From NCBI GenBank assembly GCA_944328905.1, contig CALVHW010000001.1, positions 1 to 55,906 of the forward strand: DNA of 55,906 nt, read 5' to 3'. The stretch's first letter is position 1. Each line of letters starts with the position of its first letter. The stretch comes from an uncultured Clostridia bacterium. Its GTDB lineage: Bacteria; Bacillota; Clostridia; Christensenellales; Borkfalkiaceae. Below, one piece after another: positions 1 to 21,835 of this stretch. The notes under the pieces were generated by a model. It worked only from the letters and a program-made list of their open reading frames with translations, was not told the DNA's origin and did no database searches. Made by a program: the position numbers and the translations under genes.

Positions 1-285
1 GCCGCCGCTTTGAAAAAGGGGCGGCTCTGCGTTCGGTTTTTCCTCTGCCACTCGTCGCAACAAGGTAATTTTCGCGCGCGGCTTTTCGCCGCTTGCTTTT
101 ATACGCTTGTTGCTCCTCTTCCCAAAAAATCTTTGCTTCGCAAATCTTTTTCGGGATGCCCTGTTTGTTTAGGTGCTCTCCATTATAGAAAACGCGGCAT
201 TCACCTTTTCCGCCAGAGGCGCTTATCGCGCAAATTGGGGGCGCTTTGGCAAAAGCGTGGTTTTGCCACGCACAAGTAAAAAATA
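1..285 (+). repeat. Structured repeat family, copy 1 (5'-truncated by window edge; carries ~111-bp insert at 50-160)
   Basis: Contains family motifs: GGTGCTCTCCATTATAGAA, ATTCACCTTTTCC, AAATTGGGGGCGCTTT and hairpin GGCAAAA-GCGTGG-TTTTGCC (248-267). Confidence 0.8.
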
Positions 286-287
286 TA

Positions 288-524
288 CTCGGCGAAATCT
301 TTTCGGGCTGCCGAAAACATTTCGTCCGATTTTTTAGGGCGACACCGCCGTTCAAACGCTTTCAGCGTTTTCTGCGGCGTTTTCTCCCTCTTTTTGCCCC
401 TTTTAAGGGCTCATCTTTATAGAATGGGCAAAAATTCACCCTCTTCCCATAAGCCGTAAGTATGCGGCAAATTGTGGGCGCTTTTTGAGAAACGCGGTTC
501 TCAAACGCGCAAACAGATTATTTT
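288..524 (+). repeat. Structured repeat family, copy 2
   Basis: H2 GACACCGCCG..CGGCGTTTTCTCC; H3 TTTTTGCCC(391-399)/GGGCAAAAA(426-434); H4 GCCG..CGGC; H5 TTTGAGAA-ACGCGG-TTCTCAAA (484-505); tail ATTATTTT. Confidence 0.9.
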
Positions 525-550
525 AAAACAATTTACCGTACGGCTTTCCG

Positions 551-648
551 TCTTGGGGTATGGGGCAATCGCCCCATATTGGCTTTTAACTCTGCGCACA
601 GTGGGCGGGGCAAGAACCGCAAAAGCAATTTCGCGCCCTTTATCAGCC
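551..648 (+). repeat. Accessory module D (3' appendage of repeat unit), copy a
   Basis: TCTTGGGGTATGGGGCAATCGCCCCATATT...CGCGCCCTTTATCAGCC; reverse-complement homolog at 9539-9636. Confidence 0.85.
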
Positions 649-728
649 AAAATTTGCATAACATTGCGTACAGCCATTTCAGCCGCGCAAATATTTTAAT
701 TCAACGAGCCTTTGCGGACTCAAAACTA

Positions 729-1403
729 TTACTTCTGCCCGTCCAGCAGATCCGGCCGTTTTTCGCGGGTGAGTTTTTCTGACTGCTGGCGGCGCCATTT
801 ATCGATTTCGGCATGGTTGCCGCTGCGCAGAACTTCCGGCACCGCAAGGCCGCCGTATTCGACCGGGCGGGTGTACTGCGGGTACTCCAACGCGTTTTCC
901 GAAAAACTTTCCTGCACCAGCGACGAAGTGTTGATCACCCCGTCTACATACCGCGCTAAACAATCGACCAGCACCATGGCTGGCAGTTCCCCGCCCGTGA
1001 GCACGTAGTCGCCGATGCTGATCTCCTCGTCGATAAAAAGGTCGATAACGCGCTGGTCCACCCCCTCGTAGTGCCCGCACAGCAGCACGATATGGTCGTA
1101 CTCCAACAGCGAAAACACCTTTTGCTGGCGCAGCGTTTCCCCTTTGGGCGAAAGATAGATGCGCCGCGCTTTATGTTCGGGGTCGAGCACGGCGATCGCC
1201 GAGCCGATGGGCTGGGGCGTCATGACCATGCCCGCGCCGCCGCCGAAGGGGTAATCGTCGCACTTTTTGTGCTTATCTTCCGAATAATCGCGGATGTTTA
1301 CGACGTTGATCTGTATTTTGTTTTCTTTTTGCGCCCTGCCTAAAATGCTCGCCGAAAGGGGCGCGAACATTTCGGGGAAGAGCGTTAAAATGTCGATCTT
1401 CAT
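729..1403 (-). CDS. trmD: tRNA (guanine37-N1)-methyltransferase
   Basis: MKIDILTLFPEMF, DDYPFGGGAGMVM, CGHYEGVDQR, SIGDYVLTGGE, YPQYTRP motifs; near rimM/rpsP. Confidence 0.98.
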   Translation of the reverse strand: MKIDILTLFPEMFAPLSASILGRAQKENKIQINVVNIRDYSEDKHKKCDDYPFGGGAGMVMTPQPIGSAIAVLDPEHKARRIYLSPKGETLRQQKVFSLLEYDHIVLLCGHYEGVDQRVIDLFIDEEISIGDYVLTGGELPAMVLVDCLARYVDGVINTSSLVQESFSENALEYPQYTRPVEYGGLAVPEVLRSGNHAEIDKWRRQQSEKLTREKRPDLLDGQK

Positions 1404-2131
1404 TCTTCAAAAATAGTTTCCAGCAGCGAAATTGCGAACAGGTCGTGCATTTCGCGGGTGGGATGGTTGATGTGGTTGCTGAGTAGTGCCGTGGTGTCTA
1501 CGTCCGCCGCGCGCAGTTTTTGCCAACGCGCGAAGCAGTCGCACACTTTCACTCCGCATTCTTGCGCCGCCGCCTTTGCCTCTTGCAGATACGCCGCCAG
1601 CCTGCCCTCTTTGGAAACGGCTGCCACGCTCTCGGCGGGCGCTTTCAGCGCGGCGTGCGGAATGTTGCAGTCTACATACTCGCACATGGAATTGGGCGTC
1701 ATGAAAATGACTTCGCTGCCGCTCTCTTTGAGTTTTGTAAAAATTTCGCGCAGGGCGGATACGTACGCCGCGCGCTTTTCCGGTTCCGGCCCCGCCATGC
1801 AGTCGTTCAGGCCGTAGCACACGACGGTGAGGTCGGGATGGTACGGCAGAATGTCGCGCGCGAGGCGTTTGGCGCCGTTTTGGGCGTTGTCGCCGCTGAT
1901 GCCCGCGTTGACGAGGTTGATCTGCGCGCGCGGGTACAGATAGTTCAGCATACGCACGAGGCGCGCCGAATAGGCGTTGTGCCGCTCGAACACGGTATCG
2001 AACGACGTTTCGCTCGTAAGATACAGTTCGAAACAGCCGTTGGTGACGCTGTCTCCCAAAAAGGCGATGGTCGCCGCCTCCGCTCCGAACAGATTTGAAT
2101 TTTTACCGTTCAGTTTTTCTAAAATTTTCAT
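1400..2131 (-). CDS. SGNH/GDSL hydrolase
   Basis: FLGDSVT block I, NAGISG, GLND, NHINHP catalytic His block; GGAGG RBS; 4-nt overlap with trmD start. Confidence 0.9.
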   Translation of the reverse strand: MKILEKLNGKNSNLFGAEAATIAFLGDSVTNGCFELYLTSETSFDTVFERHNAYSARLVRMLNYLYPRAQINLVNAGISGDNAQNGAKRLARDILPYHPDLTVVCYGLNDCMAGPEPEKRAAYVSALREIFTKLKESGSEVIFMTPNSMCEYVDCNIPHAALKAPAESVAAVSKEGRLAAYLQEAKAAAQECGVKVCDCFARWQKLRAADVDTTALLSNHINHPTREMHDLFAISLLETIFEE

Positions 2132-2147
2132 GATTTTCCTCCTTGCC

Positions 2148-2235
2148 GCGCCCTGTTCGGGTGCGCCGCTTTCGGGTTCGCTGTTTTCGGGGCGCCCCTT
2201 TCGAGCCGGCGCTTTTGCGGGCGGCCACCCTTTCC
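2148..2235. repeat. Degenerate ~15-bp tandem repeat (GCGCCNNTTTCGGG) in rimM-SGNH spacer
   Basis: GCGCCCTGTTCGGGT / GCGCCGCTTTCGGGT / TCGCTGTTTTCGGGG / CGCCCCTTTCGAGC followed by more degenerate units. Confidence 0.55.
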
Positions 2236-2270
2236 GGCGGCTTTTTTGCCTGCGTTATTGCACGGACGTT

Positions 2271-2774
2271 TTATTGCTCGGCCGCCACCTCGTAAAAGCG
2301 TTTTTCGTTGACCGTGATCTTTTTGTTTTCCACGTCTACCGCGGCGATCACGCCCTCGGCGGCGGGGAACATATACTCTTTTTCTTTACCCGCCAACACG
2401 AAAATATCCGTGTGCGCGGGCAGAACGTCGGCAATTTCGCCCAAACGTGCCCCCGTTTCCGTGACCACTTCGCAGCCGACGAGATCGACGATGTAGTACC
2501 TGCCCTCTTCGGGCGCGGGCGCCTCTTCGCGCAGGGCTTCGACCTCTTTTCCGCGCAGAAGTTCGGCCGCGTTCCGATCCGCCACGCCGGCGAGCGTGAG
2601 ATAGGCAAAACCGCCGCCCGCGCGCGCGGACAAAACGCGGTATTCTTTTCCGCCCAAAAACACGGTGCGGAAATTTTTGATGTAAGCCGCGTCGTCTAAC
2701 AGCGGCTTTATTTTCAGTTCGCCGCGGATGCCCTGGGGTTTGAGCACTTCGCCGATGACCAGTTTTTCGCGCAT
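2271..2774 (-). CDS. rimM: Ribosome maturation factor RimM
   Basis: IGEVLKPQGIRGELKI, DRNAAELLRG, YYIVDLVGCEV; synteny rpsP-KH-rimM-trmD. Confidence 0.97.
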   Translation of the reverse strand: MREKLVIGEVLKPQGIRGELKIKPLLDDAAYIKNFRTVFLGGKEYRVLSARAGGGFAYLTLAGVADRNAAELLRGKEVEALREEAPAPEEGRYYIVDLVGCEVVTETGARLGEIADVLPAHTDIFVLAGKEKEYMFPAAEGVIAAVDVENKKITVNEKRFYEVAAEQ

Positions 2775-2829
2775 ATATTCTCCATAGAAAAAAGAGGGAA
2801 AACCTGCATTTTCCCTCCGGGGCGCGGCG

Positions 2830-3075
2830 TTATTCCGCTTTGCCTTTTTCTTTGATTTCGATGTTGTATTTTTTGCCCTCTTTGGCGGACGCGCAGCGCA
2901 CGAGCGTGCGGAGCGCCTTGGCGATCTTGCCCTGCTTGCCGATCACTTTGCCCATATCAGACTCTTCCAAAAGCACGATAATGTCGGTGCCGCGGTCTTT
3001 TTCTTCGACGCGGTATTCGATTTCGTCTTTATGCTCGGCAAACTGTTCCACAACGTATTTTACAAGTTCCAGCAT
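2830..3075 (-). CDS. khpA: KH-domain RNA-binding protein (KhpA/YlqC)
   Basis: DMGKVIGKQGKIAKALRT GxxG KH motif; between rpsP and rimM. Confidence 0.93.
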   Translation of the reverse strand: MLELVKYVVEQFAEHKDEIEYRVEEKDRGTDIIVLLEESDMGKVIGKQGKIAKALRTLVRCASAKEGKKYNIEIKEKGKAE

Positions 3076-3096
3076 AGATCCGTTCCCCCGCCGCGA

Positions 3097-3390
3097 TTAC
3101 TTCTTTTTGCGCACTTTCGTTCTGGGGGCGGAAAGTTTGGCGGGCTTTTCGATGATGCCCTGGCGGATGAGCAGCGTTTTTACCGTTTCGGTAGGCTGCA
3201 CGCCCTTGGAAAGCCAGTCTTTCGCCTTGTCCGCGTCGATCACGATCTCTTCGGGCTGGGAAGTGGGATTATAATGCCCGACCTTTTCGATGTACTCGCC
3301 ATCGCGCGCCTTTCTCGAATCCACCACAACGATACGATAGAAGGGGCTCTTTTTGTCGCCCATTCTCGTAAGTCTCATTTTAACTGCCAT
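3097..3390 (-). CDS. rpsP: 30S ribosomal protein S16
   Basis: [22 protein letters not shown]...RDG...GHYNP. Confidence 0.99.
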
Positions 3391-3457
3391 TGTATTGCTC
3401 CTTTACAGAAAAATATTTTTTGCTTTGTTTTGCGCGGCCTTTTGCCGCAGCATTGCC

Positions 3458-3486
3458 ATTATACTCCTATAAAAAACGCCTGTCAA
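3458..3486 (-). promoter_or_regulatory. SigmaA promoter of rpsP operon
   Basis: TTGACA-17 bp-TATAAT exact consensus on minus strand. Confidence 0.85.
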
Positions 3487-3513
3487 GCATTTTTACCTGA
3501 CAGGCGGAAAATT

Positions 3514-3999
3514 TTACTCTTCTTCTGTTTCGCGGGGAAGAACGCTTCCGTTCGGGCCGTCTGCAATGCGCCATTTGAGAGAACTTGCGATAATGTATGA
3601 TTCGGCAGGCTCTTCCAAACCTTCGCCGACGGATTTCGGATCGAACTCGCTGTTCGACCACACGATCACGCGGGGATGAGCAAAATGCTCGCACGGCAAA
3701 ATTCCGTCGAAAAATTTGATGAATGCCTCAAAGATCTCGTTCAGGTAATTGTCCTGCAATCCGATCAGCCGAAAACGGCGCACGCCCTCGAAATACAGTT
3801 CGAGGTAATACGGCTCCCATTGGCTGTGAAAGAGCACCAACAGGCGCTGCCCGCCGGGACCGAACCACATCGCGCCGTCCTCTGCGACATGCGTGCCGCT
3901 CACATACTGCGCGGAAACAATACATGCATCGTGAAACCAACTGTACGCATCCTGCAATTCCCGTATATCTTCATCGGTTTGCACCTGTTTCCACTCCAT
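3514..3999 (-). CDS. Hypothetical protein, weakly Imm50-like (FHDA motif)
   Basis: 161 aa with GGGGGA RBS; WFHDACI...LELYFEGV pattern; family call is from memory only. Confidence 0.65.
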   Translation of the reverse strand: MEWKQVQTDEDIRELQDAYSWFHDACIVSAQYVSGTHVAEDGAMWFGPGGQRLLVLFHSQWEPYYLELYFEGVRRFRLIGLQDNYLNEIFEAFIKFFDGILPCEHFAHPRVIVWSNSEFDPKSVGEGLEEPAESYIIASSLKWRIADGPNGSVLPRETEEE

Positions 4000-4026
4000 A
4001 ATCCCCCCCCTCGCAGCAGTGCGCGC

Positions 4027-5343: not shown

Positions 5344-5361
5344 GCGGCTCCTCCTTATTGG

Positions 5362-5706: not shown

Positions 5707-5726
5707 GTTTTGCCTCTTACCTCAGC

Positions 5727-7924: not shown

Positions 7925-8818
7925 TTAAATGATGCCTTCGGTGAACTCTTCGGCGTCGAAAAGTTCGAGGTCTTCGAGTTTTTCGCCCGTGCCGACGAAC
8001 ACGACGGGGATTTTCAGTTCGCCGCACAGCGACACCACGAACCCGCCCTTGGCGGTGCCGTCGAGTTTGGTCAAAACGATGCCGTCGAGTTCGACAGCCT
8101 CGTCGAACAGGCGCGCCTGCGAAAGCGCGTTCTGCCCCGTGGTGGCATCCAGCACCAAAAATTTATAGAAATGCGCCTCGGGGTAATCGCGCCGCACCAC
8201 GCGGTCCATCTTTTTGAGTTCTTCCATGAGGTTCGCCTTTACGTGCAGGCGGCCGGCCGTATCGACGATGACCACGTCCGTCTTTTTGGCTTTGGCCGAG
8301 GCGATCGCGTCGTAGACGACGGCGGAGGGATCGCTGCCCTCTTCGTGCTTGACGATGCGCACTTTGGCGCGGTCTGCCCACACCGAAAGCTGATCGGACG
8401 CCGCCGCGCGGAATGTATCTGCCGCCGCCACAGTGACGCTCTTTTTTTCGCGCACGAAATAGTTTGCGAGTTTGCCGATGGTGGTGGTTTTGCCCACGCC
8501 GTTGACGCCCACGAGCATGATGACGGCGGGGTATTCGATTTCCGGAACTTCCGCCTCGCAGAGGGTATCTTCGATGACGTCTTTCAAAAGGTCGATGACG
8601 TACTGCTTGTCTTTTAGTTTTTCTTTTTTCGCCTCCGCGCGGATTTGCTCGACGATGTCTTCCGCCGTGAGCACGGAGATGTCGGCGGAAATTAAGATCT
8701 CTTCGAGTTCGTCGTAGAAATCGTCGCCGAGGTCTTTGGAAAACAGCGCGGAAAGCTTCGACGAAATGTTATCTTTCGTCTTTTTGAGTGCGCCGATGAT
8801 TTTGCCGAAAATGCCCAT
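7925..8818 (-). CDS. ftsY: SRP receptor FtsY
   Basis: GVNGVGKTTTIGKLA, DTFRAAA, DTAGRL, TKLDGTAKGG; GGAGG RBS before ATG 8818. Confidence 0.99.
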   Translation of the reverse strand: MGIFGKIIGALKKTKDNISSKLSALFSKDLGDDFYDELEEILISADISVLTAEDIVEQIRAEAKKEKLKDKQYVIDLLKDVIEDTLCEAEVPEIEYPAVIMLVGVNGVGKTTTIGKLANYFVREKKSVTVAAADTFRAAASDQLSVWADRAKVRIVKHEEGSDPSAVVYDAIASAKAKKTDVVIVDTAGRLHVKANLMEELKKMDRVVRRDYPEAHFYKFLVLDATTGQNALSQARLFDEAVELDGIVLTKLDGTAKGGFVVSLCGELKIPVVFVGTGEKLEDLELFDAEEFTEGII

Positions 8819-8835: not shown

Positions 8836-9069
8836 CTTCGCGCAAATTCTTTCAAAAGAGATGAAAGAATTTGCTTGATTTGAGAGAAAACCCGCGGGCG
8901 CGCCGCTATGCGGGCTTGGCCGCCTGTTTTCTCTCTGCGCGCGATACTTTATTTCGCTCTCAAAATTATAATCGCGCGCATTCACTCTTTCCGCATAAGC
9001 CGAATGTTTTCGGCAATTTGAGGGCGCTTTCCGAAAAGCGTGGTTTTCGGACGCGCAATAAATTATTTT
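8836..9069 (+). repeat. Structured repeat family, copy 3
   Basis: H1 GCAAATTCTTTCA/TGAAAGAATTTGC; H2 GAGAGAAAAC/GTTTTCTCTC; H3 TGCGCGCGAT/ATCGCGCGCA; H4 GCCGAA/TTCGGC; H5 TCCGAAAA-GCGTGG-TTTTCGGA. Confidence 0.92.
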
Positions 9070-9071: not shown

Positions 9072-9304
9072 TTCACAAAATTTGTTTTTTAGCGGCAAAA
9101 ACAAATTTTCGTGATTTTGATGGAGACACCGCCGCGCGCCGCTGGAAAGGCGGCTGTGCGGCGTTTTCTCCCTCTTTTTGCCCTTTTTTAGATGCCCTCC
9201 ATTATAGAACGGGCAAAAATTCACCCTCTTCCCGCAAGCCGAAGTGTCGGCAAATGGAGTGCGCTGGCGCAGAGACGCGGCTCTGCTTGCGCAAGAAAAT
9301 TATT
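9072..9304 (+). repeat. Structured repeat family, copy 4 (tandem to copy 3)
   Basis: H1 TCACAAAATTTGTTTTT/AAAAACAAATTTTCGTGA; H2 GGAGACACCGCCG..CGGCGTTTTCTCC; H3 TTTTTGCCC/GGGCAAAAA; H5 GCAGAG-ACGCGG-CTCTGC. Confidence 0.9.
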
Positions 9305-9355
9305 ATATCTTCGCGAACGCGAAAAATTATTTTAGTTCACAAAATTTTTTGCCGA

Positions 9356-9446
9356 GGGAGTTATAATGGAATATAATAAATTTTCCGTGAACCGCTCCGA
9401 ACGCTCCGCGTTCTGACCGCTTCCCGTCAAATTTATTATAACTCCC
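9356..9446. repeat. ~90-bp segment bounded by AT-rich inverted repeats (MITE-like)
   Basis: Left GGGAGTTATAAT(GGAATATAAT)AAATTT vs right AAATTTATTATAACTCCC. Confidence 0.55.
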
Positions 9447-9538
9447 GTTTCACCGCGATTTTATCGTTATCTGCCATATTTGTTTTTGGCAGGTATGATT
9501 GACAAAATTTTTGCTGTTTGCTTGATTTTGCGTTTTTA

Positions 9539-9636
9539 GGCTGATAAAGGGCGCGGAAATGCTTTGCAACTTTACCCTACCGCCCGCGCGCACATTTTAT
9601 TCGGCTAATATGGGGCTATCGCCCCATACCCCAAGA
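9539..9636 (-). repeat. Accessory module D, copy b
   Basis: Reverse-complement homolog of 551-648 (TCTTGGGGTATGGGGCGATAGCCCCATATT...CGCGCCCTTTATCAGCC). Confidence 0.85.
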
Positions 9637-9662
9637 TAATGACTCGCGCGAGTAAAAACATT

Positions 9663-9851
9663 AAAATAATTTACTGCGCGTGGCAAAACCACGTTTTTGC
9701 CTAAGCGCACCCAATTTGTCGCAAACCTGCGACCTGAGCGGGTGAATGCGGCGCGCGTATAAATGGAGAGCGCCTAAAAATGCGCGCCGCAGAGGGCAGA
9801 GCCCTCAAAATCACGGAAAATTTGCGAACTCTTTTCGCAAATTTTCGTGAA
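9663..9851 (-). repeat. Structured repeat family, copy 5 (inverted; H2 reduced)
   Basis: On minus strand: H1 with AAGAG loop, GAGGGC/GCCCTC, H3 TGCGGCGCGC/GCGCGCCGCA with loop GGCGCTCTCCATTT, ATTCACCC, AAATTGGGTGCGC, GGCAAAA-ACGTGG-TTTTGCC, tail ATTATTTT. Confidence 0.88.
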
Positions 9852-9855: not shown

Positions 9856-12800
9856 TTAGGCTACGGTATCCCCGCCGAGTTTGCTCTCCACCTCCGACAG
9901 TTTGACGGAGACGATTTTGGAAACGCCCTTTTCTTCCATGGTAACGCCGAAGAGGCTGTCTGCCTTTTCCATGGTGGGTTTGCGGTGAGTGATGACGATA
10001 AACTGCGTTTCTTTGGCGAATTTCTTTAAGAACTGCGCGAATTTATCGACGTTCGCCTCGTCTAATGCCGCCTCGATTTCGTCGAGCACGCAGAAGGGCA
10101 TGGGGCGCAGCATCAGGATGGCGAACAGGATGGCGATCGCCGTGAGCGCGCGCTCGCCGCCCGAAAGCAGCGAAATTTTGGTGAGTTTTTTGCCGGGCGG
10201 GCACGCCACGATCTCCACGCCGGCAGACAGCGGATCGTCGCACTCGGAATAATCCATTTGCAGTTCCGCGCGGCCGCCGCCGAACAGTTCTTTGAACAGT
10301 TTTTTGAAGTTTTCGTTGATCTGGTTGAAGCCTTCGTCGAACTGCTTTTGCATTTCGCCTTTTAGCTCTTCGAGTGCGGCGGTGGTGTCGTCGATGCCCT
10401 TTTGCACGTCGTCGCGCTGGGTGCACATTTCCTGGTACTGGGCGTTGAGCGTTTCGTACTCCTCGAGCGCGTTGTGGTTGATGGCGCCGAGCGCGCCGAT
10501 TTCCCGCTTTAAGCGGTTGACCGCCGTTTGCCCCTCTTTGGGATCGAATTCGTCGCTCTTGTATTGCAGGCAGCTCTCGTACGTTTCCTGGTACTCTTCG
10601 TCGATGCGCGCCTGCAGATTTTCCAGGTCGGAATCGATTTTGGTGAGTTCGATCTCCTGTTTGTGGCGCTCTTCGGAAAGCTGCTCGATGCGGTCGTTGA
10701 GGGTGCGCGTTTGGCCGAGCACGCCTTCGAGTTCGGCGTTGAGCGTTTGCTTTTCTTGCTGCCCCGCCGCCTGGCGCGCGCGCAGGGCGGAGAGTTCTTC
10801 GCGCTGCCGGGGCGTGAACGCCGCTTTTTCCGCCATGTCTTTGAGGTCGACAATGGTGGCGGCGATGTTTTTTATATTGCTGTTGGCATCGGCGATGCGC
10901 CTTTCCAGTTCCTCTTTTTCGCGGGAAAGGCGGAGAACATCGCCGCGGCTCGCCTCGGCGCCGGCGTTCCACTGCGCGATGTACACCTGCAGCACGTTCT
11001 GGCGCATATTGCGCTGGCCGAGTTCGGATTTGAGTTTATCGTACTCGCTTTTGCGGCGGTCGGATTCGCCCTCGGCGTCGCTCTTTAACCGGGCGATCTG
11101 TTCTTCGCCCTCGGCGGATGCGGAAAAGTCGCTGTCGATGCCCTTTAAGCGCTCGTAGAGGACGGCGAGGGTATCTTCCTGCACTTGCAGGTCCTTTTCT
11201 TCCTGCTCGCAGCGGGCGGTGAGCGATTGCTTTTTTTCAGCGAGCGCCGCGATGCGCGAGCGCGCCTCCTGAAAACTTTCGCGCAGCATTTCCAGTTCCT
11301 GCATGCCCTTGTTTTTCTTTTCTTCGAGCGCGGCGCGCTTGGCGGTGAGTTCCGCCTTTTGCTTTTCGGCGGCGGCGATGTTCGCGCGCGTCTCTTCGAT
11401 GCGGCGCTCGTTGGCGAGGAAGTTGCTGCCGCCCTCGCGCCGCGAGCCGCCCGTCATCGAGCCGCTCGTGGAGATGACGTCGCCGTCGAGCGTGACGATG
11501 CGGAAAGCGTGCGGATACTTTTTGGCGATATCCGTGGCGCTCGCGATGGTGTCGGCGATGAGCGTGTTGCCGATGAGATTGTAGATGACGTTGTCGTAAT
11601 ATTTATCGTAGCGGACGAGGTCGTTGGCAAGCCCCACGGCGCCCTTTTCTTTCAATGCGCGGCGGGTGTACTCCGTTTCGTAGCGCGGCTTTAAGGAGGC
11701 GACGGGCAAAAAGGTGATCTGCCCGCCCTTGGTGCGCTTTAAGTACTCGATGAGCCAGCGGGCATCGTCGCTGGTGGCGGTGACGATGTTCTGCATGGCG
11801 CCGCCGAACGCCGTTTCGATGGCGACTTCGTACTTTTCGTCCGTCTTGACGATGTCGGCAATGACGCCCTTGACGCGCTTGGAAATTTCCGGATCGCGGC
11901 GGGCGTCGCCCATGAGTTTTTTGACGGAGAATTTATAGCCCTCGAAATCGTTCTTGACGCTGTTGTAGAAGCGCCCGCGGTCGGAAAGGGCGGAAATGCG
12001 CGCGCCGCAGTCGAAAATCTGTTCGGAAACGGCGTCTGCCTCGGTGACCAGCGCGGCGATCTCTTCCTCTTTTGCCGCCTTGATCTCCTTTTCGCGCGAG
12101 AGGTATTCTTCCACCTCGTCGTGCCAGGAAACGCAGTCGGCGAGCGCCTTTTTATCCTCCGCGAGTTTGGCGCGGATCTCTTCCGCCGCGGCGGCGATTT
12201 CGTTTATGCGCTCCTGCACCGCCTCTTTTTTGGCCGAAAGCGTGCCGATGTTCTGGCGGATCTCGGAGAGGTTTTCCAGGCGGTCGATGACGCTTTTGTG
12301 CGATTCGCCTTCGAGCGCCTCGTATTCGGACAGTTTGCCCGTGAGTTCTTTGACCTCTTCGGCGAGTTGGGCGCTCTCTTTCTGCGCGCCCTCGATTTTG
12401 GAAAGCAGGTCTTTGACGTTCGCCTCGGCTTTTTCCGCCTCGACGGCGATGGCCGCGATGCGCGCGGCGCTCTCTTCGGAGACGCGTTCCTCGTTTTTTT
12501 GCTGTTCGAGGAAGAAGGAGATGCGCTCGCGGATGACTTTGGCGTCGCCCTCCTTTTTTTCTAAATCGACGGTGTATTTGAGGATCTCGTCGCTCAAAGA
12601 TTGCAGCGTCTGGTCGATCTCCGCGATGCGGCGGCGGGCGGAAGCGTACTTTTCTTCCAGCGATTCCACGCGCTCGCGGTTTTCGGCGATCTCGCTTTGC
12701 AGGCTGTCGGCGCGGATGCGGATGGCGGCGCGCGCCGATTCGGCGTTGTCGTGCTTGTATATGTAGAGGTTGATTTCGTTGTGTTTGAGCTGCTCGTACA

Positions 12801-13455
12801 GTTCTTTGTATTTTTTCGTCTTTTCTGCCTGGCGCGCGAGGGGGGTGAGCATATGCTCGACCTCGCCCATCCTCTGCAGGAAAATATTGAGGTTGGTGTA
12901 GGAGTTGGAGAGGCGCCGCTCGATATCCTGCTTGCGCGATTTGAACATGATGATGCCCGTCGCCTCTTCGAAAATGGCGCGGCGGTCTTCGGGTTTGGCG
13001 TTCATGATTTGCTCGATTTTGCCCTGGCCGATGATGGAATACCCCTCTTTGCCAAGGCCGACGGCGTGCAGGCGGTCGACGATGTCTTTCATGCGGCAGG
13101 GCTGCTTGTTGATGGCGTACTCGCTTTCGCCGCTGCGGAACAGGCGGCGCGTGAACGCCACTTCGTCGTATTCGAGATCCTCGAACATACGCGTGGAGTT
13201 ATCGAACGTGAGCGTGACCTCGCAGAACGACTGGCTCTTACGCTGCTGCGTGCCGCCGAAAATGACGTCCTGCATATTGGAGCCGCGCATGGTCTTGGCC
13301 GACTGTTCGCCGAACACCCAGCGGATGGAATCGGCCACGTTGCTCTTGCCGCAGCCGTTCGGCCCGACGATGCAGGTGACGCCGTTATCGAATTTGATTT
13401 CGGTTTTATCCGCAAAGGATTTGAAACCGTTGAGTTCGACTTTTTTGAAATTCAA
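9856..13455 (-). CDS. smc: Chromosome segregation protein SMC
   Basis: GFKSFAD, Walker A GPNGCGKSN, coiled coils with hinge, LSGGE signature, LDEIEAALDEAN; rnc-smc-ftsY synteny. Confidence 0.99.
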   Translation of the reverse strand: MNFKKVELNGFKSFADKTEIKFDNGVTCIVGPNGCGKSNVADSIRWVFGEQSAKTMRGSNMQDVIFGGTQQRKSQSFCEVTLTFDNSTRMFEDLEYDEVAFTRRLFRSGESEYAINKQPCRMKDIVDRLHAVGLGKEGYSIIGQGKIEQIMNAKPEDRRAIFEEATGIIMFKSRKQDIERRLSNSYTNLNIFLQRMGEVEHMLTPLARQAEKTKKYKELYEQLKHNEINLYIYKHDNAESARAAIRIRADSLQSEIAENRERVESLEEKYASARRRIAEIDQTLQSLSDEILKYTVDLEKKEGDAKVIRERISFFLEQQKNEERVSEESAARIAAIAVEAEKAEANVKDLLSKIEGAQKESAQLAEEVKELTGKLSEYEALEGESHKSVIDRLENLSEIRQNIGTLSAKKEAVQERINEIAAAAEEIRAKLAEDKKALADCVSWHDEVEEYLSREKEIKAAKEEEIAALVTEADAVSEQIFDCGARISALSDRGRFYNSVKNDFEGYKFSVKKLMGDARRDPEISKRVKGVIADIVKTDEKYEVAIETAFGGAMQNIVTATSDDARWLIEYLKRTKGGQITFLPVASLKPRYETEYTRRALKEKGAVGLANDLVRYDKYYDNVIYNLIGNTLIADTIASATDIAKKYPHAFRIVTLDGDVISTSGSMTGGSRREGGSNFLANERRIEETRANIAAAEKQKAELTAKRAALEEKKNKGMQELEMLRESFQEARSRIAALAEKKQSLTARCEQEEKDLQVQEDTLAVLYERLKGIDSDFSASAEGEEQIARLKSDAEGESDRRKSEYDKLKSELGQRNMRQNVLQVYIAQWNAGAEASRGDVLRLSREKEELERRIADANSNIKNIAATIVDLKDMAEKAAFTPRQREELSALRARQAAGQQEKQTLNAELEGVLGQTRTLNDRIEQLSEERHKQEIELTKIDSDLENLQARIDEEYQETYESCLQYKSDEFDPKEGQTAVNRLKREIGALGAINHNALEEYETLNAQYQEMCTQRDDVQKGIDDTTAALEELKGEMQKQFDEGFNQINENFKKLFKELFGGGRAELQMDYSECDDPLSAGVEIVACPPGKKLTKISLLSGGERALTAIAILFAILMLRPMPFCVLDEIEAALDEANVDKFAQFLKKFAKETQFIVITHRKPTMEKADSLFGVTMEEKGVSKIVSVKLSEVESKLGGDTVA

Positions 13456-13458: not shown

Positions 13459-14121
13459 CTATTCTCCCTTTATAAGGCATTGCAGCAACTGCTTTGCCGC
13501 CGATTTTTCTGCCGCGCGCACCGTTTTGCCCGTGCCGACGGCGCTTTTGCCCGCCGCCGTCGCCTGTACGGTAAAGACGGGCGCCACGTCTTCCCCTTCC
13601 CGCCGCACAAGTTCGTATGCGGCGCGCGGAAGGTGCCTGCCCTGCAAGTATTCTTGCAATTCCCCTTTATAGTTCGGCTCCGCCTGCTGCGCCAGCGGCA
13701 GGTACGCCGCCACGAATTTTTGCGCGGGGACGATGCCGCCGTCGAGATAAATGGCCGCCACGATCGCCTCGAACAGGCTGGAAACCGCCTTTTTGCCCGG
13801 ATCGCCGCGCATACCCGCGGAGATGCGCAGGTATTTTTCCAAACCCAAGGCGCGCACGGCCGATTCGAGCGGGGCTGCCGAAACGCAGCGGATGCGCCGC
13901 GCCGTCATCTCCCCTTCGCGCTCGCCGCCCGCGCGGTACAGCGCGTCGGCGACCAGAAAGCCGAGCAGGGCATCGCCCAAAAATTCCAGCCGCTCGTTGC
14001 TCTCGCAGCCGTGCTCGCCCGCATAGGAAGCGTGCGTGAAACACGTTTCCAGAAGGCGCTTATCGCGGAACGTATAGCCGATTTTTTGTTCGATTTCGGA
14101 AAAAACGTCAGTGTTCGGCAC
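13459..14121 (-). CDS. rnc: Ribonuclease III
   Basis: NERLEFLGDA signature, FEAIVAAIYLD, C-terminal dsRBD (YKGELQE...AEKSAA). Confidence 0.96.
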   Translation of the reverse strand: MPNTDVFSEIEQKIGYTFRDKRLLETCFTHASYAGEHGCESNERLEFLGDALLGFLVADALYRAGGEREGEMTARRIRCVSAAPLESAVRALGLEKYLRISAGMRGDPGKKAVSSLFEAIVAAIYLDGGIVPAQKFVAAYLPLAQQAEPNYKGELQEYLQGRHLPRAAYELVRREGEDVAPVFTVQATAAGKSAVGTGKTVRAAEKSAAKQLLQCLIKGE

Positions 14122-15151
14122 CGGTACCCGCGGCGGCCGCCGCCTCCCAATCGACGCCTTCGAGCAGTTTTTTGATGTCGGCGATCAGGCCGTTCGCGGC
14201 GGCGTCTTTCGCCTGCAAAACGGACGCGCAGATGGAATCGGCATTGCTCGACCCGTGCGACTTGACCACGACCTTTTCGATGCCCAAAAGCACCGCGCCG
14301 CCGTATTTGTGGTAATCCATCTTCTCTTTGATGTTTTTGAACGCCTTTTTCATGAACAGCGCGTAGCCGAGTTTGGCGGAAAACGACTGCATGATGCTGT
14401 TTTTGATGATCTTCATGACGGCGGACGCCGTGCCCTCGACCGTTTTGAGGGCGATGTTGCCGGAAAAACCGTCGCACACGGCGACGTCGATGTCGCCGCT
14501 CATGATGTCGCGCCCCTCGACGTTGCCGACGAAGTTGATGCCCGGCAATGTTTTGAGGATGGCGTGCGCCTCCTGGTGGAGCGGATCGCCCTTGTGCTCT
14601 TCGGTGCCGTTGGTGACGAGGCCGACGCGCGGGTTTTTGACGCCGTTTGCCTTGGCGTACGCCGTGCCCATGATGGCGAAGTGCGCGAGGTTGACCGGCT
14701 TGCACTCGGCGTTGGCGCCCGCGTCGATGAGCAGTACCCTGCCGCCCTTGGCGGTGGGGAGCATGGGGCAGACGGCGGGACGGGAAATGCCGCGGATGCG
14801 GCCGACGCGCAGCAGCGCGCCCGTGAGCACCGCGCCCGTGGAACCGGCGCAGACGAGCCCCTGCACCGCATCGTTCTCTTTGAGGAGATTGAGCGCCACC
14901 ACGAGGGAGGAATCCTTTTTCTGCCGGATGGCTACGGTGGGCGCATCGTCGTTGGTGACGATTTCGGTGGTGTGCACGATCTCTACGCGGTCCTCATCGT
15001 AAGTGTACGCGGAGAGGCAGTTTTCGATTTGCGCCTCGTCGCCGGTGAACACGACGGAGAGATCTTTGTCTTTGGAAAGCGCCATGACGGCGCCCTTTAC
15101 GATTTCTGCGGGGGCGTTGTCGCCGCCCATGGCATCGACGATAATTTTCAT
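14108..15151 (-). CDS. plsX: Phosphate acyltransferase PlsX
   Basis: MKIIVDAMGGDNAP, AGSTGA, DAGANAE, CDGFSGN, KSHGSS; start at 15151 after AAGGAG. Confidence 0.98.
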   Translation of the reverse strand: MKIIVDAMGGDNAPAEIVKGAVMALSKDKDLSVVFTGDEAQIENCLSAYTYDEDRVEIVHTTEIVTNDDAPTVAIRQKKDSSLVVALNLLKENDAVQGLVCAGSTGAVLTGALLRVGRIRGISRPAVCPMLPTAKGGRVLLIDAGANAECKPVNLAHFAIMGTAYAKANGVKNPRVGLVTNGTEEHKGDPLHQEAHAILKTLPGINFVGNVEGRDIMSGDIDVAVCDGFSGNIALKTVEGTASAVMKIIKNSIMQSFSAKLGYALFMKKAFKNIKEKMDYHKYGGAVLLGIEKVVVKSHGSSNADSICASVLQAKDAAANGLIADIKKLLEGVDWEAAAAAGTGAEH

Positions 15152-15164: not shown

Positions 15165-15395
15165 CTTCGCGCAAATCTCCGCAAAAAAGATGCGGATATT
15201 TGCTTGATTTGAGAGAAAACCCGCGGGCGCGCGGCTTTGCCGCTGGCCGCCTGTTTTCTCTCTTTGCGCGATATTTTAAGGGCTCTCAAAATTTTAATCG
15301 CGCAAATTCACTCTTTCCGCATGAGCCGTAAGAATGCGGCTAATTGGGGGCGCTTTCCGAAAAATGTGATTTTCGGACGCGCAGTAAATTATTTT
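15165..15395 (+). repeat. Structured repeat family, copy 6
   Basis: Closely matches copies 3 and 8; H3 TTTGCGCGAT/ATCGCGCAAA; H5 TCCGAAAA-ATGTGA-TTTTCGGA. Confidence 0.92.
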
Positions 15396-15396: not shown

Positions 15397-15695
15397 AAAT
15401 AATCTACTCGCGCAAGCAAAACCGCGCTTTTGCGTTTGCGCACCCCAATTTGCCAACGCTTTGGCTTACGGGAAGAGGGTGAATTTGCGGCTTTATGTAA
15501 TTGTTTGGAGCCCTTAATATAAGCCGCAAAGAGGGAGAAAACGCCGCAGAAAATGCGTCAGCATTTGAACGGCGGTGTCTCCTTCAACTCTCGGAAAATC
15601 GCAGGCGTAATCGGAGACGATTGCGGTGCACTCGTTTTCGCCATTGCAAGCAAGTGAAAGCCTCGTGCACCTTCAGCTCGCCGAGATTTTCGAGA
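15397..15695 (-). repeat. Structured repeat family, copy 7 (inverted, tail-to-tail with copy 6; holds 88-bp module C)
   Basis: On minus strand: GGAGACACCGCCG..CGGCGTTTTCTCC, H3 TTTGCGGCTT/AAGCCGCAAA, TTCACCCTCTTCCC, AAATTGGGGTGCGC, GCAAAA-GCGCGG-TTTTGC. Confidence 0.9.
15599..15686 (+). repeat. Module C, 88-bp element identical (reverse complement) to 21490-21577
   Basis: Base-by-base identity by eye; internal stems AATCG-GAGA-CGATT, GGTGCAC/GTGCACC, GGCG/CGCC. Confidence 0.92.
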
Positions 15696-15701: not shown

Positions 15702-17084
<1,383 letters not shown>

Positions 17085-17133
17085 GGTATTTTCTCCGTTT
17101 GCGGAATTTTTCTGCATTGTATATTTGCATAAT

Positions 17134-17162
17134 ATTGTAGCAGAAAACGCGCGATTTATCAA
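17134..17162 (-). promoter_or_regulatory. SigmaA promoter of asnS
   Basis: TTGATA-17 bp-(TGc)TACAAT about 50 nt upstream of ATG. Confidence 0.65.
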
Positions 17163-18021: not shown

Positions 18022-18069
18022 AGTACGTTCCCCATAAAAACGGCCGCCCCGATCGGCGGCCGCTGTGTT

Positions 18070-19197
18070 TTATTCGATCTCTTTGATGAAACATTTGCGG
18101 CGCTTTACGATTTCGCGCTGCAGAACCGTCCATTGTGCCTGCACGTCGAGATTGCTGACGAGCTCGGGGTTGGACTCGATCTTTTGAACGCCGTCTTCGA
18201 TGATGTTGCGGATGATGCGCGCCATCATGATGGAGTTGACGCCCTTTTTCTGGTAATCGGGCCGGACGGCGACGAGCGCCATTTCCAGTTCTTTCGGCCG
18301 GGCGATGGTGCGCAACAGGCCGAAAATGGCCGGGAGCGTCATGTGGCCGCGGCTCCGGATAAGCACGTCGCAGATGGACGGGATGACCGCGCCCATGGCC
18401 ACGACCTCGTCGTTCTTATCGGTGAGCAACGAAAAATAGCGGGGGTTGATGATGGTGGCGAACTGGTCGAGAACGTCGTCCATCTGCGCGCCTTCGACGG
18501 GAACGTAACAATCAAGCGGGGCGTATGCCTCGTTGACCATGGCGAGCGCCTTGCGGCCGTATTGCGGGATGAGTTTTTTCATCGGAACGGATTCCGCGCG
18601 CTCGGTAAGCCCCAGTTTGCGCTGGGTGTATTCCGCCACGCGCGCGATGCGGGCGTCAAGCTCGTCGGGAATGCCGAAATCGTATTCCACCCATTCGCTT
18701 TCGTCTGCAAAGCCGAGTTCTTTGACCAGTTTTTCGTAATAAGGATAATTGTAATTGGTGGCATAGGTGGCGCGGCGGTCGAACCCGTAGGTGAGCAGGC
18801 CTTCCCTGTCCATATCGTTGAAACCCCACGGGCCGTGAATATACTGCATGCCGCGCTCTTTGCCGAACGCCTCGACGGCGCCGAGCAGCGCGCGGGCAAC
18901 TTCGATATCGTCGATGCAGTCGAACCGCGAAAAGCGGATATACTTTTTGCCGGAGATCGCGTTGTGCTTTTTTTGAATGATGCCCGCGGCGCGGCCGACA
19001 TAGCGGCCGTCTTTTTCGGCAAGAAAACAGCGCACCTCGCAGTCGGCAAGCGACGGATTCTTTTTCGGATCCATTATGCTGATCTCGTCGGCATACAGCG
19101 ACGGCACATAATACGGGCAGCCGCGGTAAAATTTTTCGGAAAACCGCGCAAACGCTTTTAACTGCCTGCGGGTGCGGACTTCGACGATGTTGACCAT
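18070..19197 (-). CDS. GNAT-fold N-acetyltransferase (YghO-like)
   Basis: PYYVP, GRAAG, RFSRFDCID, GPWGFNDMDREG, YNYPYY, AVRPDYQKKGV; GAAGGAG RBS. Confidence 0.85.
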   Translation of the reverse strand: MVNIVEVRTRRQLKAFARFSEKFYRGCPYYVPSLYADEISIMDPKKNPSLADCEVRCFLAEKDGRYVGRAAGIIQKKHNAISGKKYIRFSRFDCIDDIEVARALLGAVEAFGKERGMQYIHGPWGFNDMDREGLLTYGFDRRATYATNYNYPYYEKLVKELGFADESEWVEYDFGIPDELDARIARVAEYTQRKLGLTERAESVPMKKLIPQYGRKALAMVNEAYAPLDCYVPVEGAQMDDVLDQFATIINPRYFSLLTDKNDEVVAMGAVIPSICDVLIRSRGHMTLPAIFGLLRTIARPKELEMALVAVRPDYQKKGVNSIMMARIIRNIIEDGVQKIESNPELVSNLDVQAQWTVLQREIVKRRKCFIKEIE

Positions 19198-19297
19198 TCT
19201 TTCTCCTTCGGTGAGACAATGTTCCACGTACTTAACATGGGATATTCTTTATTTTATCACATATTCGGCGCGGACGCAACTCTTTTTGTAATGTTTT

Positions 19298-20602
19298 TTA
19301 TGACAGGGCGTTTCCGTCCGGCGCGGAAGGGCTTTCGGACGGGGCGAGGGGCCGCTCGACGATGCCGCGCACGGGGGCGTAACTATCCTTGCGCAGGCGC
19401 TTGCGCTCGGTTTTGCCGCCGCGGCGCACGATGAGGTACCCCTCGCTGCGGATGCCCTGTTTGGGGACGCGGAGTTCGCGCTCTTCGGCAATCTCCGCAC
19501 TTTCGCGGATCTCCGGTTCGGGGGGATCGACGTACTGCACGAGCACGCTCTCGCGCTCGTATTCAACGCCCGTGGAGCGGCCGTACACTGATACCGTGAG
19601 AGCGTTGCCGTGCACGCGGCACACGAGGTATGCCCGCGCGCCCGTTACGTTGCGGAAGCGCAGGTCGCAGCCGCTGCCGCTGACCATGGCGTCGAACGAC
19701 GGCGCGACGTAGCCGACCGCCAAGCTGTGCGGGTGGTATTCGACGATCTGCATTCCCGCCAGAAGCGCGGCATTGTAGACGGTGGTGCTGACCTGGCACA
19801 CGCCGCCGCCCACGCCCTCGGTAAATTCGCCGCCCGAGATGACGGGCGCGGGAAGATAGCCGTTTTCCTCCGTGCGCCTGCCCGCCGCGGCGTTGAACGA
19901 GAACACTTCCCCCGCCGCCAGCGCGCAGCCGATCTTTTGCGCCGCCACGGCGATGTTGTGCGAACGGTTTGCCGCCGCCGCGTTGAAATAGGTGGTGAAC
20001 CGCGCGAGGAGGGAGGCGTCCGCCTCCGCCCTCGCACGCGTGACGGGCGGGCGGGAGGTGTGTACTTCGGCGACGACCGTGCCGCCGCCCGCGGCCAGCG
20101 TTTCGCGGATATCCGCGCGCAGTTTGGCGCCGTTGACGCAGCGGCCGCTCACCTCTTGGGTAAATTGCAGGGGCGTATCCGACTGCGGATCGAACAGCGT
20201 GCGCACGTTTTCGCTGCGGCGGTAGAGGTCGGCGCAGATGCCGCGCACCGCGCGCTCTTCGTTCAGAAGGCACAGCCGCTTTTGCAGCGGGTACTCGCCG
20301 CCCCCGCCGCGCAATGCCGCAAACAGCACACGGCGCAGGTCGGTGACGAAATACAGCTCGGGCGCGCGGAAAACATAGGTGTTTTCGCCCGCGTACACGG
20401 TGAGCGATTTTTCTTCGAGTTCGCGCGCGAGCGAATCGTTGACCAGAGCCGCGGCCTCGGCCGGCGTTTTGCCGGATACGTCTACCCCGCCCACGGTGCA
20501 GCCGCGCGGCAGGCGCGACGGGGCAAACCCCGCCGCCGCCAAACAAAAAAGCGCGGCCGCAAGCGCCGCGCAAATGCTTTTGAGAGTTCTTCCCTTTGCC
20601 AT
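19298..20602 (-). CDS. VanW-family exported protein (YoaR-like)
   Basis: Signal peptide; NRSHNI, FSFNAAAGRR, GGGVCQVSTTVYNA, HPHS, DLRFRN VanW motifs. Confidence 0.9.
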   Translation of the reverse strand: MAKGRTLKSICAALAAALFCLAAAGFAPSRLPRGCTVGGVDVSGKTPAEAAALVNDSLARELEEKSLTVYAGENTYVFRAPELYFVTDLRRVLFAALRGGGGEYPLQKRLCLLNEERAVRGICADLYRRSENVRTLFDPQSDTPLQFTQEVSGRCVNGAKLRADIRETLAAGGGTVVAEVHTSRPPVTRARAEADASLLARFTTYFNAAAANRSHNIAVAAQKIGCALAAGEVFSFNAAAGRRTEENGYLPAPVISGGEFTEGVGGGVCQVSTTVYNAALLAGMQIVEYHPHSLAVGYVAPSFDAMVSGSGCDLRFRNVTGARAYLVCRVHGNALTVSVYGRSTGVEYERESVLVQYVDPPEPEIRESAEIAEERELRVPKQGIRSEGYLIVRRGGKTERKRLRKDSYAPVRGIVERPLAPSESPSAPDGNALS

Positions 20603-20622
20603 ACGCCCCTTCTCCTCGGTTA

Positions 20623-20652
20623 CAGTATGCGGAAAAGACGGGCGATCCATGC
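20623..20652 (-). promoter_or_regulatory. Putative forespore sigmaG-type promoter of VanW gene
   Basis: GCATG-18 bp-CATACTG resembles GHATA-18-CATAHTA. Confidence 0.4.
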
Positions 20653-20667
20653 GCACTATTTTACTCT

Positions 20668-20900
20668 CTTCGCGCAAATCTCCGCAAAAGAGATGCGGAT
20701 ATTTGCTTGATATTCAGAGAAAACCCGCGGGCGCGCGGCTATGCCGCTGGCCGCCAGTTTTCTCTCTGCGGCGCATACTTTAAAAGGCTCTCAAAATTTT
20801 AATGCGCCGCATTCACTCTTTCGGCATGAGCCGTAAGAATGCGGCTAATTGGGGGCGCTTTCCGCAAAACGCGGTTTGCGGACGCGCGAGTGATTATTTA
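20668..20900 (+). repeat. Structured repeat family, copy 8
   Basis: Near-identical linkers to copy 6; H3 TGCGGCGCAT/ATGCGCCGCA; H5 TCCGCAAA-ACGCGG-TTTGCGGA. Confidence 0.92.
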
Positions 20901-20974
20901 TTGTACAAAACCGTGCCGCGAGCGCTATTTTACGGACGTCGCAGAAAAAGCTCCGCGCAGACGGGGTTCGCCGT

Positions 20975-21460
20975 TTAATTGCGCACGAGGCGCTTGCAAG
21001 TCCATTCGCGCACGCGGATCTCCGCCGCCGCGGTGAACGAGAGGGCGCGCGCATCGAAGGGCGTTTCGGCAAAGGTTTCGCCCGTGTAGTGCGCCATGAG
21101 GACGCGCAGGGCGTGCTCGCGCTCCTCTTCTTTTTCCAGAACGCGCGCAATGCCCGTGCCGCAGATGCTCTCGTAATCGGAAGTATAGCCGCAGGGCGCC
21201 GTGCCCTTGTTGAACACGCGCAGCAAATTCGCCGCAGAAAAGCCGACTTCGGGATTGCCGCGGAGAAGATCGAGTTTGGTGCCCTCTTTGGCGCAGTGAA
21301 AGTATAGAAACAGATCGCCGCCGCGCAGTTCCGCCCCGAAGTTGAGGGGCACGAGGTAGGGCGCGCCGCCCGTTTGCATGGCGAGCGTGAAATATCGGCA
21401 GCGCAGCAGCACTGCCAGTTTTTCGGATATATCGGTAACTTCGCGGTCGGATTTACGCAT
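20975..21460 (-). CDS. Pyridoxamine 5'-phosphate oxidase family (NimA-like) flavin-binding protein
   Basis: MRKSDREV, PYLVPLNFG, YFHCAKEGTKL, YESICGTG; AAGGAG RBS before 21460. Confidence 0.9.
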   Translation of the reverse strand: MRKSDREVTDISEKLAVLLRCRYFTLAMQTGGAPYLVPLNFGAELRGGDLFLYFHCAKEGTKLDLLRGNPEVGFSAANLLRVFNKGTAPCGYTSDYESICGTGIARVLEKEEEREHALRVLMAHYTGETFAETPFDARALSFTAAAEIRVREWTCKRLVRN

Positions 21461-21480
21461 GGAAAACTCCTTATTTTTGT

Positions 21481-21835
21481 TCTCGCATTTCTCGGCGAGC
21501 TGAAGGTGCACGAGGCTTTCACTTGCTTGCAATGGCGAAAACGAGTGCACCGCAATCGTCTCCGATTACGCCTGCGAAATGCCGAGATTTTAGGGAGACA
21601 CCGCCGCACGGCGCGTTGCGACTAACGTCGTTTTCTCCCTCTTTTTGCCCTTTTTAAGGGCTCACCTTTATAGAACGGGCAAAAATTCACCCTCTTCCCA
21701 TAAGCCGAAGCGTTATGCCGAATGTTTTCGGCTATTTGGGGGATGCCTTGGCAAAAGCGCGGTTTTGCTTGCGCAAATAATTATTTTCAGTTCACGAAAA
21801 TTCGTGAAAAGAGTTCGCAAAAATTCCGTGATTTT
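21481..21835 (+). repeat. Structured repeat family, copy 9 (with module C at 21490-21577) plus lone H1 hairpin 21791-21835
   Basis: GGGAGACACCGCCG..GTTTTCTCCC, TTTTTGCCC/GGGCAAAAA, TTCACCCTCTTCCCATAAGCCG, GCAAAA-GCGCGG-TTTTGC, ATTATTTT; then TTCACGAAAA..AAGAG..TTCCGTGA. Confidence 0.9.

Follow-up and report, generated by a model that had tools for sequence, protein, structure and literature searches.

A folded, apparently undescribed family of mosaic repeats between housekeeping genes of an uncultured Clostridia bacterium

Repeat units of the window and their fold

The window analysed here, a stretch of 55,906 nucleotides (nt; contig CALVHW010000001.1 of assembly GCA_944328905.1, from an uncultured Clostridia bacterium of the Borkfalkiaceae), carries a dispersed repeat of five hairpins (H1 to H5) between housekeeping genes such as trmD, ftsY, smc, plsX and asnS (Table 1). 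An original prediction, made from the letters alone, had described nine copies as a candidate undescribed structured RNA or single-stranded DNA (ssDNA) mobile element, kept for its fold and spread in trans. All nine were located at the places and on the strands given there; in each of them the H5 arms and the RYGYGR loop are as described, the H3 arms pair with their partner and TTCAC is unchanged. The hairpin order holds as well, with some exceptions: the first copy is real but cut by the contig start and atypical in its H1-H3 region, the unit next to smc has a minimal H2, and the linker and the ATTATTTT tail vary. A 66-nt insert in the H1 of copies 15397-15695 and 21481-21787 had no place in the predicted scheme, and two partial copies and the modules C and D had been missed.

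Table 1. Features of the window and, in the last row, the GIY-YIG gene of two related loci. Strands refer to the folding strand, opposite to that of the original prediction.
Feature	Position	Strand	Remarks
Repeat unit truncated by contig start	1-285	-	nhmmer E 2e-41 and sequence
Full repeat unit	288-524	-	tandem with 1-285; profile E 7e-55
Module C	531-704	+	GGGG-ATGGGG..CCCCAT hairpin, CGCGCCCTT motif; 19 genome matches
trmD, flanking gene	729-1403	-	NCBIfam match
ftsY, flanking gene	7925-8818	-	ribosome-binding site adjoins the H1 of the unit at 8836
Full repeat unit	8836-9069	-	profile E 5e-57
Full repeat unit, tandem	9072-9304	-	profile E 1e-53
Remnant: tail and beginning of H1	about 9310-9350	none	sequence; repeat family D20
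Module D	9356-9492	none	long imperfect hairpin, TTATAAT arms; motif 9 times in genome
Module C copy	9482-9658	-	profile E 2e-47
Repeat unit, minimal H2	9663-9851	+	H1 starts 4 nt past smc stop
smc, flanking gene	9856-13455	-	
plsX, flanking gene	14108-15151	-	adjoining H1 end extends into the GGAG ribosome-binding site
Full repeat unit, one arm of tail-to-tail doublet	15165-15395	-	profile E 3e-60
Other arm of doublet	15397-15695	+	insert E at 15608-15674; starts 6 nt past asnS stop
asnS, flanking gene	15702-17162	-	
Full single unit	20668-20900	-	ahead of VanW-domain gene start (20650)
Unit with insert E and duplicated H4	21481-21787	-	insert at 21502-21568; precedes start (21460) of pyridoxamine-oxidase-like gene
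Partial unit, H1 only, tandem	21790-21841	-	
GIY-YIG/NUMOD gene	L353:2627-3979; L478 (G050:C3:4471-5820)		

A profile built from the nine copies, which recognises these same copies at E values of 1e-36 to 1e-60, gave 142 matches in the source genome (1.64 Mb in 138 contigs, 67% complete), distributed over 80 loci on 54 of the 138 contigs and covering 1.6% of the genome. A refined profile gave 164 matches in 90 loci, 93 of full length, and on the reversed genome neither profile gave any match. Partial matches were 44 of 145. The unit measures about 230 nt and reads 5'-AAATAAT tail-H5-H4-GTGAA-H3-GAGRRRAAA/H2-H1-3' on the folding strand; the folding z score of one copy was -7.8 as RNA and -6.8 as DNA.

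The predicted covariation of the stems with preserved pairing was borne out by a core alignment and by anchor-based counts. In the 61-sequence core alignment, pairing was retained in 86.5% of 1369 cells and double changes were seen at 19 of 23 pairs, in 256 cells versus 89±10 after shuffling, whereas only 37-53% remained paired when the alignment was slid out of register; both controls ignore the relatedness of the copies. By anchors, H5 was 85% Watson-Crick versus 60% with swapped arms, and H3 97% versus 46%, the latter count being biased upward by picking the arm with the best pairing. RNAalifold on a plain MAFFT alignment recovered 15 pairs only, because the stems misalign there. A pseudoknot of the H5 loop was considered and dropped, the conserved C pairing in the outer helix of H4 instead in 61 of 61 sequences. 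The compensation is thus clear, but as template switching also repairs the arms of palindromes, covariation is by itself no proof that the fold is kept by selection.

Copy-to-copy identity had a median of 67%, with a median of 88% for the nearest paralogue and a maximum of 95% (60 of 70 full-length copies), in agreement with divergence rather than recent near-identical duplication. Against Rfam 15, with its T-box, HEARO, group II intron, riboswitch and TwoAYGGAY families, neither the window nor the repeats of 10 relative loci had a gathering-score match, and the repeats had none at E≤5 either. Since no Rfam family was matched, no recent duplicates were seen and the compensation is clear, none of the findings that the original prediction had named as evidence against itself was made. 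Altogether, the copies form a real and apparently undescribed family of folded repeats. T-box, group II intron D5, dif/XerD, MOBQ oriT and CRP/CodY boxes were considered by eye only and dropped. In one related locus, a distant homolog of the repeat has an OLE RNA (RF01071, 444 bits; L154:426-1024) about 80 nt away.

The strand on which the prediction had drawn the hairpins is probably the non-folding one. This was deduced from the mismatches in 199 distinct 1x1 contexts from 297 copies, contexts which are not independent of each other. On the predicted strand, A.C mismatches numbered 56 versus 15 G.T (p=1e-6), and C.T 49, while terminator-like controls had 19 G.T and 14 A.C. The A.C:G.T ratio points in the same direction in all five helices (6:2, 16:1, 11:5, 4:2 and 9:0), and the opposite strand therefore carries the wobble pairs and purine mismatches. 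This bias is compatible with RNA, with ssDNA or with strand-specific mutation in a single-stranded intermediate, and does not separate them. Folding energy barely distinguishes the strands (the reverse is lower in 31 of 43), and scans of the repeat for promoters and terminators revealed nothing consistent.

Arrangement, genomic position and turnover

Every locus reads (>)n(<)m, with units in tandem or tail to tail. H1-to-H1 junctions were absent from all 90 loci of the genome and from 222 adjacent pairs in other loci, where overlapping loci were possibly counted twice. Tail-to-tail junctions have the form TTATTT-N1-3-AAA(T/C)AA, being TTATTT-TG-AAATAA between the 15165 and 15397 units. The arms of a doublet are mutually 0.63 alike (maximum 0.68, n=12) versus 0.68 for random pairs (p=0.008), and the alleles of H1, H2, H4 and H5 occur mixed in many combinations. 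The extra modules C (19 matches), D (9) and the insert E (4) sit in the centre or in H1; next to trmD, module C occupies the place of the inverted arm, with 25 nt between its end and the trmD stop. A read joint skipping 21503-21567/8, within the second insert E, was found in 4 of 4 DNA runs and may stem from paralogues. Each of the modules C and D is a multi-copy hairpin family of its own and always lies on the main unit's tail side; C-like sequences likewise follow the tail in family f10. Other REP-like palindromes (of the GTCATCCTGAGC and CCTTCCCCC types) are nested among units in L056 (a smc-ftsY gap), L097 and G000:C89. The repeat stands at 23 contig ends and breaks assemblies.

Gene neighbourhoods in the source genome were counted with our own open reading frame (ORF) caller. 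The neighbours are housekeeping genes, including the core operons smc-ftsY, asnS-plsX and trmD. Of the 60 loci that have a neighbour on either side, 48 fall in co-directional gaps, which matches the background (922 of 1178). Copies face either way along the mRNA, 45 of 92 being sense and 47 antisense, so that the unit has no set orientation. The H1 end is placed tightly, at a median of 3 nt after stop codons (≤20 nt in 34 of 46) and 18 nt before start codons (≤30 nt in 34 of 51), where it often runs into the Shine-Dalgarno sequence; the corresponding distances of the tail are 139 nt to stops (n=9) and 92 nt to starts (n=13; p=4e-5 and 3e-5 versus H1). Codon adaptation of neighbours was 0.742 versus 0.714 (126 versus 1096 genes), as measured against a crude 13-gene reference. 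The repeat is likely transcribed together with the genes of its operons, and would there affect how the mRNA is processed or how stable it is.

Foreign low-GC genes were more often tail-facing (7 of 133) than H1-facing (1 of 233, p=0.004), two of them being orthologues and one maybe a false ORF. Three low-GC cases can be described. A DUF6883 and DUF4926 pair, which we take to be toxin/immunity-like, is bounded by a partial unit together with modules C and D (G000:C89:1797-2760; L277:597-1463). A 156-amino-acid (aa) lipoprotein-like ORF lacking any Pfam match lies between two repeat arrays (G000:C38:6683-7260; L278:980-1450). A CoiA-like nuclease gene stands upstream of the unit tail at a single site, seen in two genomes that differ in their unit alleles there (L194:1379-2239 and L370:4227-5102).

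Among the 49 genomes compared from this genus (likely Ca. Borkfalkia), 47 had matches to the repeat, with counts per genome from 0-2 up to at least the ceiling of the search. Weak matches in 5 of 150 genomes sampled from the order were on inspection multi-copy units with the same skeleton in other Christensenellales families, while 2 of 150 genomes sampled from the class gave one weak match each. A three-anchor pattern, run on the species collection in its 64 parts, retrieved 116 stretches from 28 of them; among the 80 listed, all belong to Clostridia/Bacillota, many to Ca. Borkfalkia and others to Gallimonas and Alloclostridium. By blastn, no repeat was present in the plasmid and phage sets, where module C had one chance match, and no viral contig carried the three-anchor or the module-C pattern; 17 viral-contig matches to a loose pattern were dismissed as chance on inspection. 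No description of the family was found in the literature searched, though supplements (the Weinberg motif tables, the loci of a 2026 preprint) could hold one.

Orthologous gaps were surveyed in the 30 best loci per gene and scored where the upstream gene was in view. The asnS-plsX gap was occupied in 20 of 25 genomes and the smc-ftsY gap in 14 of 23, the gaps ranging from 33 nt to arrays of 1.1 kb. Arms at orthologous sites of different genomes were no closer to each other (0.650) than arms at different sites (0.648), whereas arms of the same genome and orientation were 0.765 alike (n=11), indicating that copies have been replaced or converted within lineages. Orthologous gaps thus hold unrelated alleles, and there is turnover at the same sites across species.

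Search for a mobiliser and comparison with known systems

Neither Y1 transposases (PF01797) nor TnpB, reverse transcriptase (RT), DUF559 or tyrosine recombinase genes were detected in the source genome at its 67% completeness. The idea of a spread in trans is in agreement with this lack of a linked enzyme in both window and genome; an HUH transposase as its mover is putative. Y1 genes occur in 28 of the 49 genus genomes, and the loci that were read show ordinary IS200 elements. No RT, TnpB or IS110 locus had a repeat nearby, as an RT-linked ncRNA, an omega-RNA or an IS110 bridge RNA would, none of 19 tyrosine-recombinase loci carried a convincing copy, and DUF559 was absent from 6 genomes. HNH matches were limited to 5 genomes, no search for the IscB RRXRR family having been made. 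A motif scan of the source genome revealed no small GIY-YIG gene of the Ssn type, its own GIY-YIG match being a 578-aa frame only.

The closest likeness is to the REP, BIME and REPIN elements of E. coli and Pseudomonas mobilised by RAYT (TnpA-REP), with which the repeat shares an intergenic position close behind stops, a share of about 1-2% of the genome, inverted doublets, tandem mosaics and the lack of target duplication. Doublets, trans mobilisation and a position within 15 nt of stops are reported for REP elements in the parts available of PMC6006769 and 10.1101/2024.07.17.603846. The present unit differs by its size (about 230 nt and five helices versus 21-65 nt), by stems that vary freely with compensation, and by the lack of a repeat-flanked Y1 gene and of a GTAG/GTGG guide at the hairpin foot; GT[AG]G was present within the terminal 30 nt of only 17 of 91 copies and is not conserved. 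TwoAYGGAY (RF01731) is likewise a structured multi-copy element of variable copy number, with no mobiliser known and 68% of divergent doublets according to the accessible text of 10.64898/2026.09.22.753630. AYGGAY loops are found in 0 of 91 copies here, and the doublets stand back to back with no spacer and are made of units of five tandem hairpins. Modular mosaics with clustering, nesting and a variable number of modules also recall the streptococcal elements BOX, RUP and SPRITE as well as the NIMEs of Neisseria, as far as PMC3049150 was available; BOX and RUP have terminal inverted repeats; unlike the present family, they also duplicate their target and prefer gaps between convergent genes. 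Doublet ends here typically match at 5-6 of 8 positions, only because both are H1.

The Ssn nucleases with their NTS/SRM sequences combine single-strand hairpin repeats with a GIY-YIG nuclease, as stated in the portion consulted of PMC11893778. The SRM pattern was found in 0 of 91 copies, and the GIY-YIG gene adjacent to the repeat in two loci encodes a multi-domain protein of 450 aa. By eye, SRM-type repeats are interspersed in a few loci of the present family, for instance L056. Integron attC sites resemble the unit in starting at stop codons, ending before the next ribosome-binding site and having covarying stems with bulges, but the unit has five hairpins, occurs in both orientations between syntenic housekeeping genes and has no integrase nearby. 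The attC consensus is RYYYAAC..GTTRRRY, and such ends were found in 0 of 182 strand readings. The structured RNA or ssDNA element of the original prediction is therefore retained in part only: the status of an RNA gene is putative, and the features of REP (GTAG/RAYT), attC and Ssn/SRM were looked for and not found. The repeat works like BIME/REPIN doublets, yet it does not appear to belong to any of the REP, MITE (BOX, RUP and Correia type), attC, Ssn and Rfam families.

Origin and maintenance of the repeats

The explanation that we favour, and to which we give an even chance, is a non-autonomous, BIME/REPIN-like mosaic repeat, copied via a folded single strand by an enzyme in trans, shuffled by recombination, retained where it spares the stop codon and the ribosome-binding site, and acting secondarily on the mRNA. 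A nuclease or strand-transfer enzyme would recognise the constant loops and linkers (the H5 loop, GTGAA and GAGRRRAAA) on one strand and copy or paste the units, with the AT tail as a putative point of exchange. Homologous recombination between copies would swap modules and homogenise the copies within a lineage, and near-identical inverted arms would be purged as long palindromes, which are unstable. Insertions would survive mostly between the stop codon and the Shine-Dalgarno sequence, where hairpins could shield the ends of the mRNA. In its favour stand the number and spread of the copies, the compensated stems, the one-sided mismatches, the absence of H1-to-H1 junctions, the near-equal sense and antisense counts, the placement of H1, the alleles at orthologous sites, the unlike inverted arms, the lack of target duplication, the codon adaptation of the neighbours and the precedent of REP.

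Several observations weigh against this explanation. No mobiliser was found: RT is present in 5, TnpB in 1 and IS110 in 5 of the 49 genus genomes, no copy was carried by 30 Y1 loci of the genus (30 of 71 matches examined) nor by 5 from other families, and only 2 of 114 enzyme loci had a copy nearby, both of them zinc-finger matches below the cut-off. No identical young copies were seen among those compared (maximum identity 95%), hence there is no sign of current transposition, and no clean empty-site allele was seen among the 15 of 133 joints listed from four DNA runs. The occupation of the same gaps across genomes would be explained equally well by old residency with gene conversion. Convergent gaps are not enriched (7 of 60 versus 124 of 1178), unlike those of the pneumococcal repeats in the part consulted of PMC3049150. 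A flank test of 18 doublets in the source genome gave p=0.004, a value due to one T-run and not replicated; the test of 48 doublets, which counts in favour of the explanation, revealed no target duplication (mean flank repeat 1.54 versus 1.39 shuffled, p=0.26).

Part of the same evidence is compatible with a domesticated cis-acting cassette for mRNA processing or stability, which selection would maintain and recombination alone would have dispersed. Its AU-rich centre would be cut by an endoribonuclease, and the H1 hairpins would protect the upstream 3' end and the downstream 5' end. The tight placement of H1 at stops and starts, the 48 of 60 loci in co-directional gaps, the highly expressed neighbours and the reuse of the same gaps across species argue for it, as does Clostridium cellulolyticum, in which processing sites between genes, equipped with stem-loops, determine the ratios of transcripts according to the available text of PMC4423207. 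Such a cassette would leave unexplained why both orientations are equally common when one strand shows the wobble bias, and why 5 of the 25 asnS-plsX gaps and 9 of the 23 smc-ftsY gaps lack the repeat and some genomes have as few as 0-2 matches; alone, it cannot account for the first arrival at about 90 sites. As the sole explanation it is considered unlikely, although it and the copying of units by an enzyme in trans can both hold. The purine-rich GGAAAG/GGTGA tracts, which resemble Shine-Dalgarno-like stabilisers, may also speak for the cassette.

The one-strand bias for G.U and purine mismatches and the loops conserved across families could also reflect a multi-copy structured non-coding RNA (ncRNA), transcribed from the AT tail of divergent doublets and acting in trans, for example as a protein sponge. 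The divergent doublets of TwoAYGGAY are a precedent, and pieces of the repeat occur in RNA-library contigs, which are unstranded and summed over paralogues so that their depth is not readable as expression. The 15165/15397 junction has no consensus promoter, and no terminator is present at the H1 end, which continues into a ribosome-binding site or a stop codon; with 44 of 145 matches partial and stems that are mostly Watson-Crick, a trans-acting ncRNA appears improbable. Still less credit is given to neutral palindromes whose arms would be kept complementary by template switching instead of selection and whose copies drift by recombination. Whole-arm block changes with near-perfect pairing would be expected of them, and the correction of quasi-palindromes is a known mutation route (PMC3820800, as far as available), but the strand-asymmetric mismatches, the constant bulges and loops, the five-helix order kept across families and the strict orientation rule make this rival, already disfavoured, very hard to sustain.

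A GIY-YIG gene provided one candidate partner. In L353 and L478, a gene of 450 aa and 32% GC from a GIY-YIG/NUMOD clade lies at the trmD site; it begins at the trmD stop, which it overlaps or abuts, and ends in the AT tail of the unit. Its protein has 11 full-length relatives (51-96% identity, 7 with PF01541) and no matching solved structure. If the gene were the autonomous form, the unit would be the RNA or DNA partner of the endonuclease, which would mobilise the gene-less copies. The gene is however 1 of 519 adjacent genes examined, one of the 49 genus genomes has a close homolog, the paralog located after a RecX-like gene in G050:C12 has no unit, and 0 of 27 loci of more distant relatives carry the unit. 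The association is limited to one site, as expected of a free-standing homing endonuclease, and the partnership is judged very unlikely. We read the gene as a homing-endonuclease-like passenger, the tail being its landing site. Free-standing genes of this kind sit in chromosomal operons.

A bolder proposal, which we regard as a long shot, would make the unit the folded single-stranded substrate of an undescribed selfish system whose insertions are placed at the limits of translation, 3 nt behind stops and flush with the Shine-Dalgarno sequence, its AT tail serving as entry point for foreign genes including the GIY-YIG endonuclease, maybe the autonomous partner. If true, it would be a structure-encoded, integron-like device of gut Christensenellales for gene capture and mRNA rewiring. 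Most bacterial interspersed repeats are short and near-identical, whereas here a five-helix fold is kept across families while its stems are rewritten. The 49-genome lineage is a testbed for how structured repeats that lack an enzyme, BOX and TwoAYGGAY among them, spread and for whether they tune operon stoichiometry, and the family is a caution for ncRNA discovery by covariation.

Elsewhere in the window, a low-GC stretch (41%) at 37800-39000 is unrelated to the repeat, and a terminator-like inverted pair at 38996-39034 has a similar counterpart at 45437-45475. The direct-repeat output is dominated by ordinary Asp/Glu-rich low-complexity coding repeats at 49679-49977 and 37137-37237.

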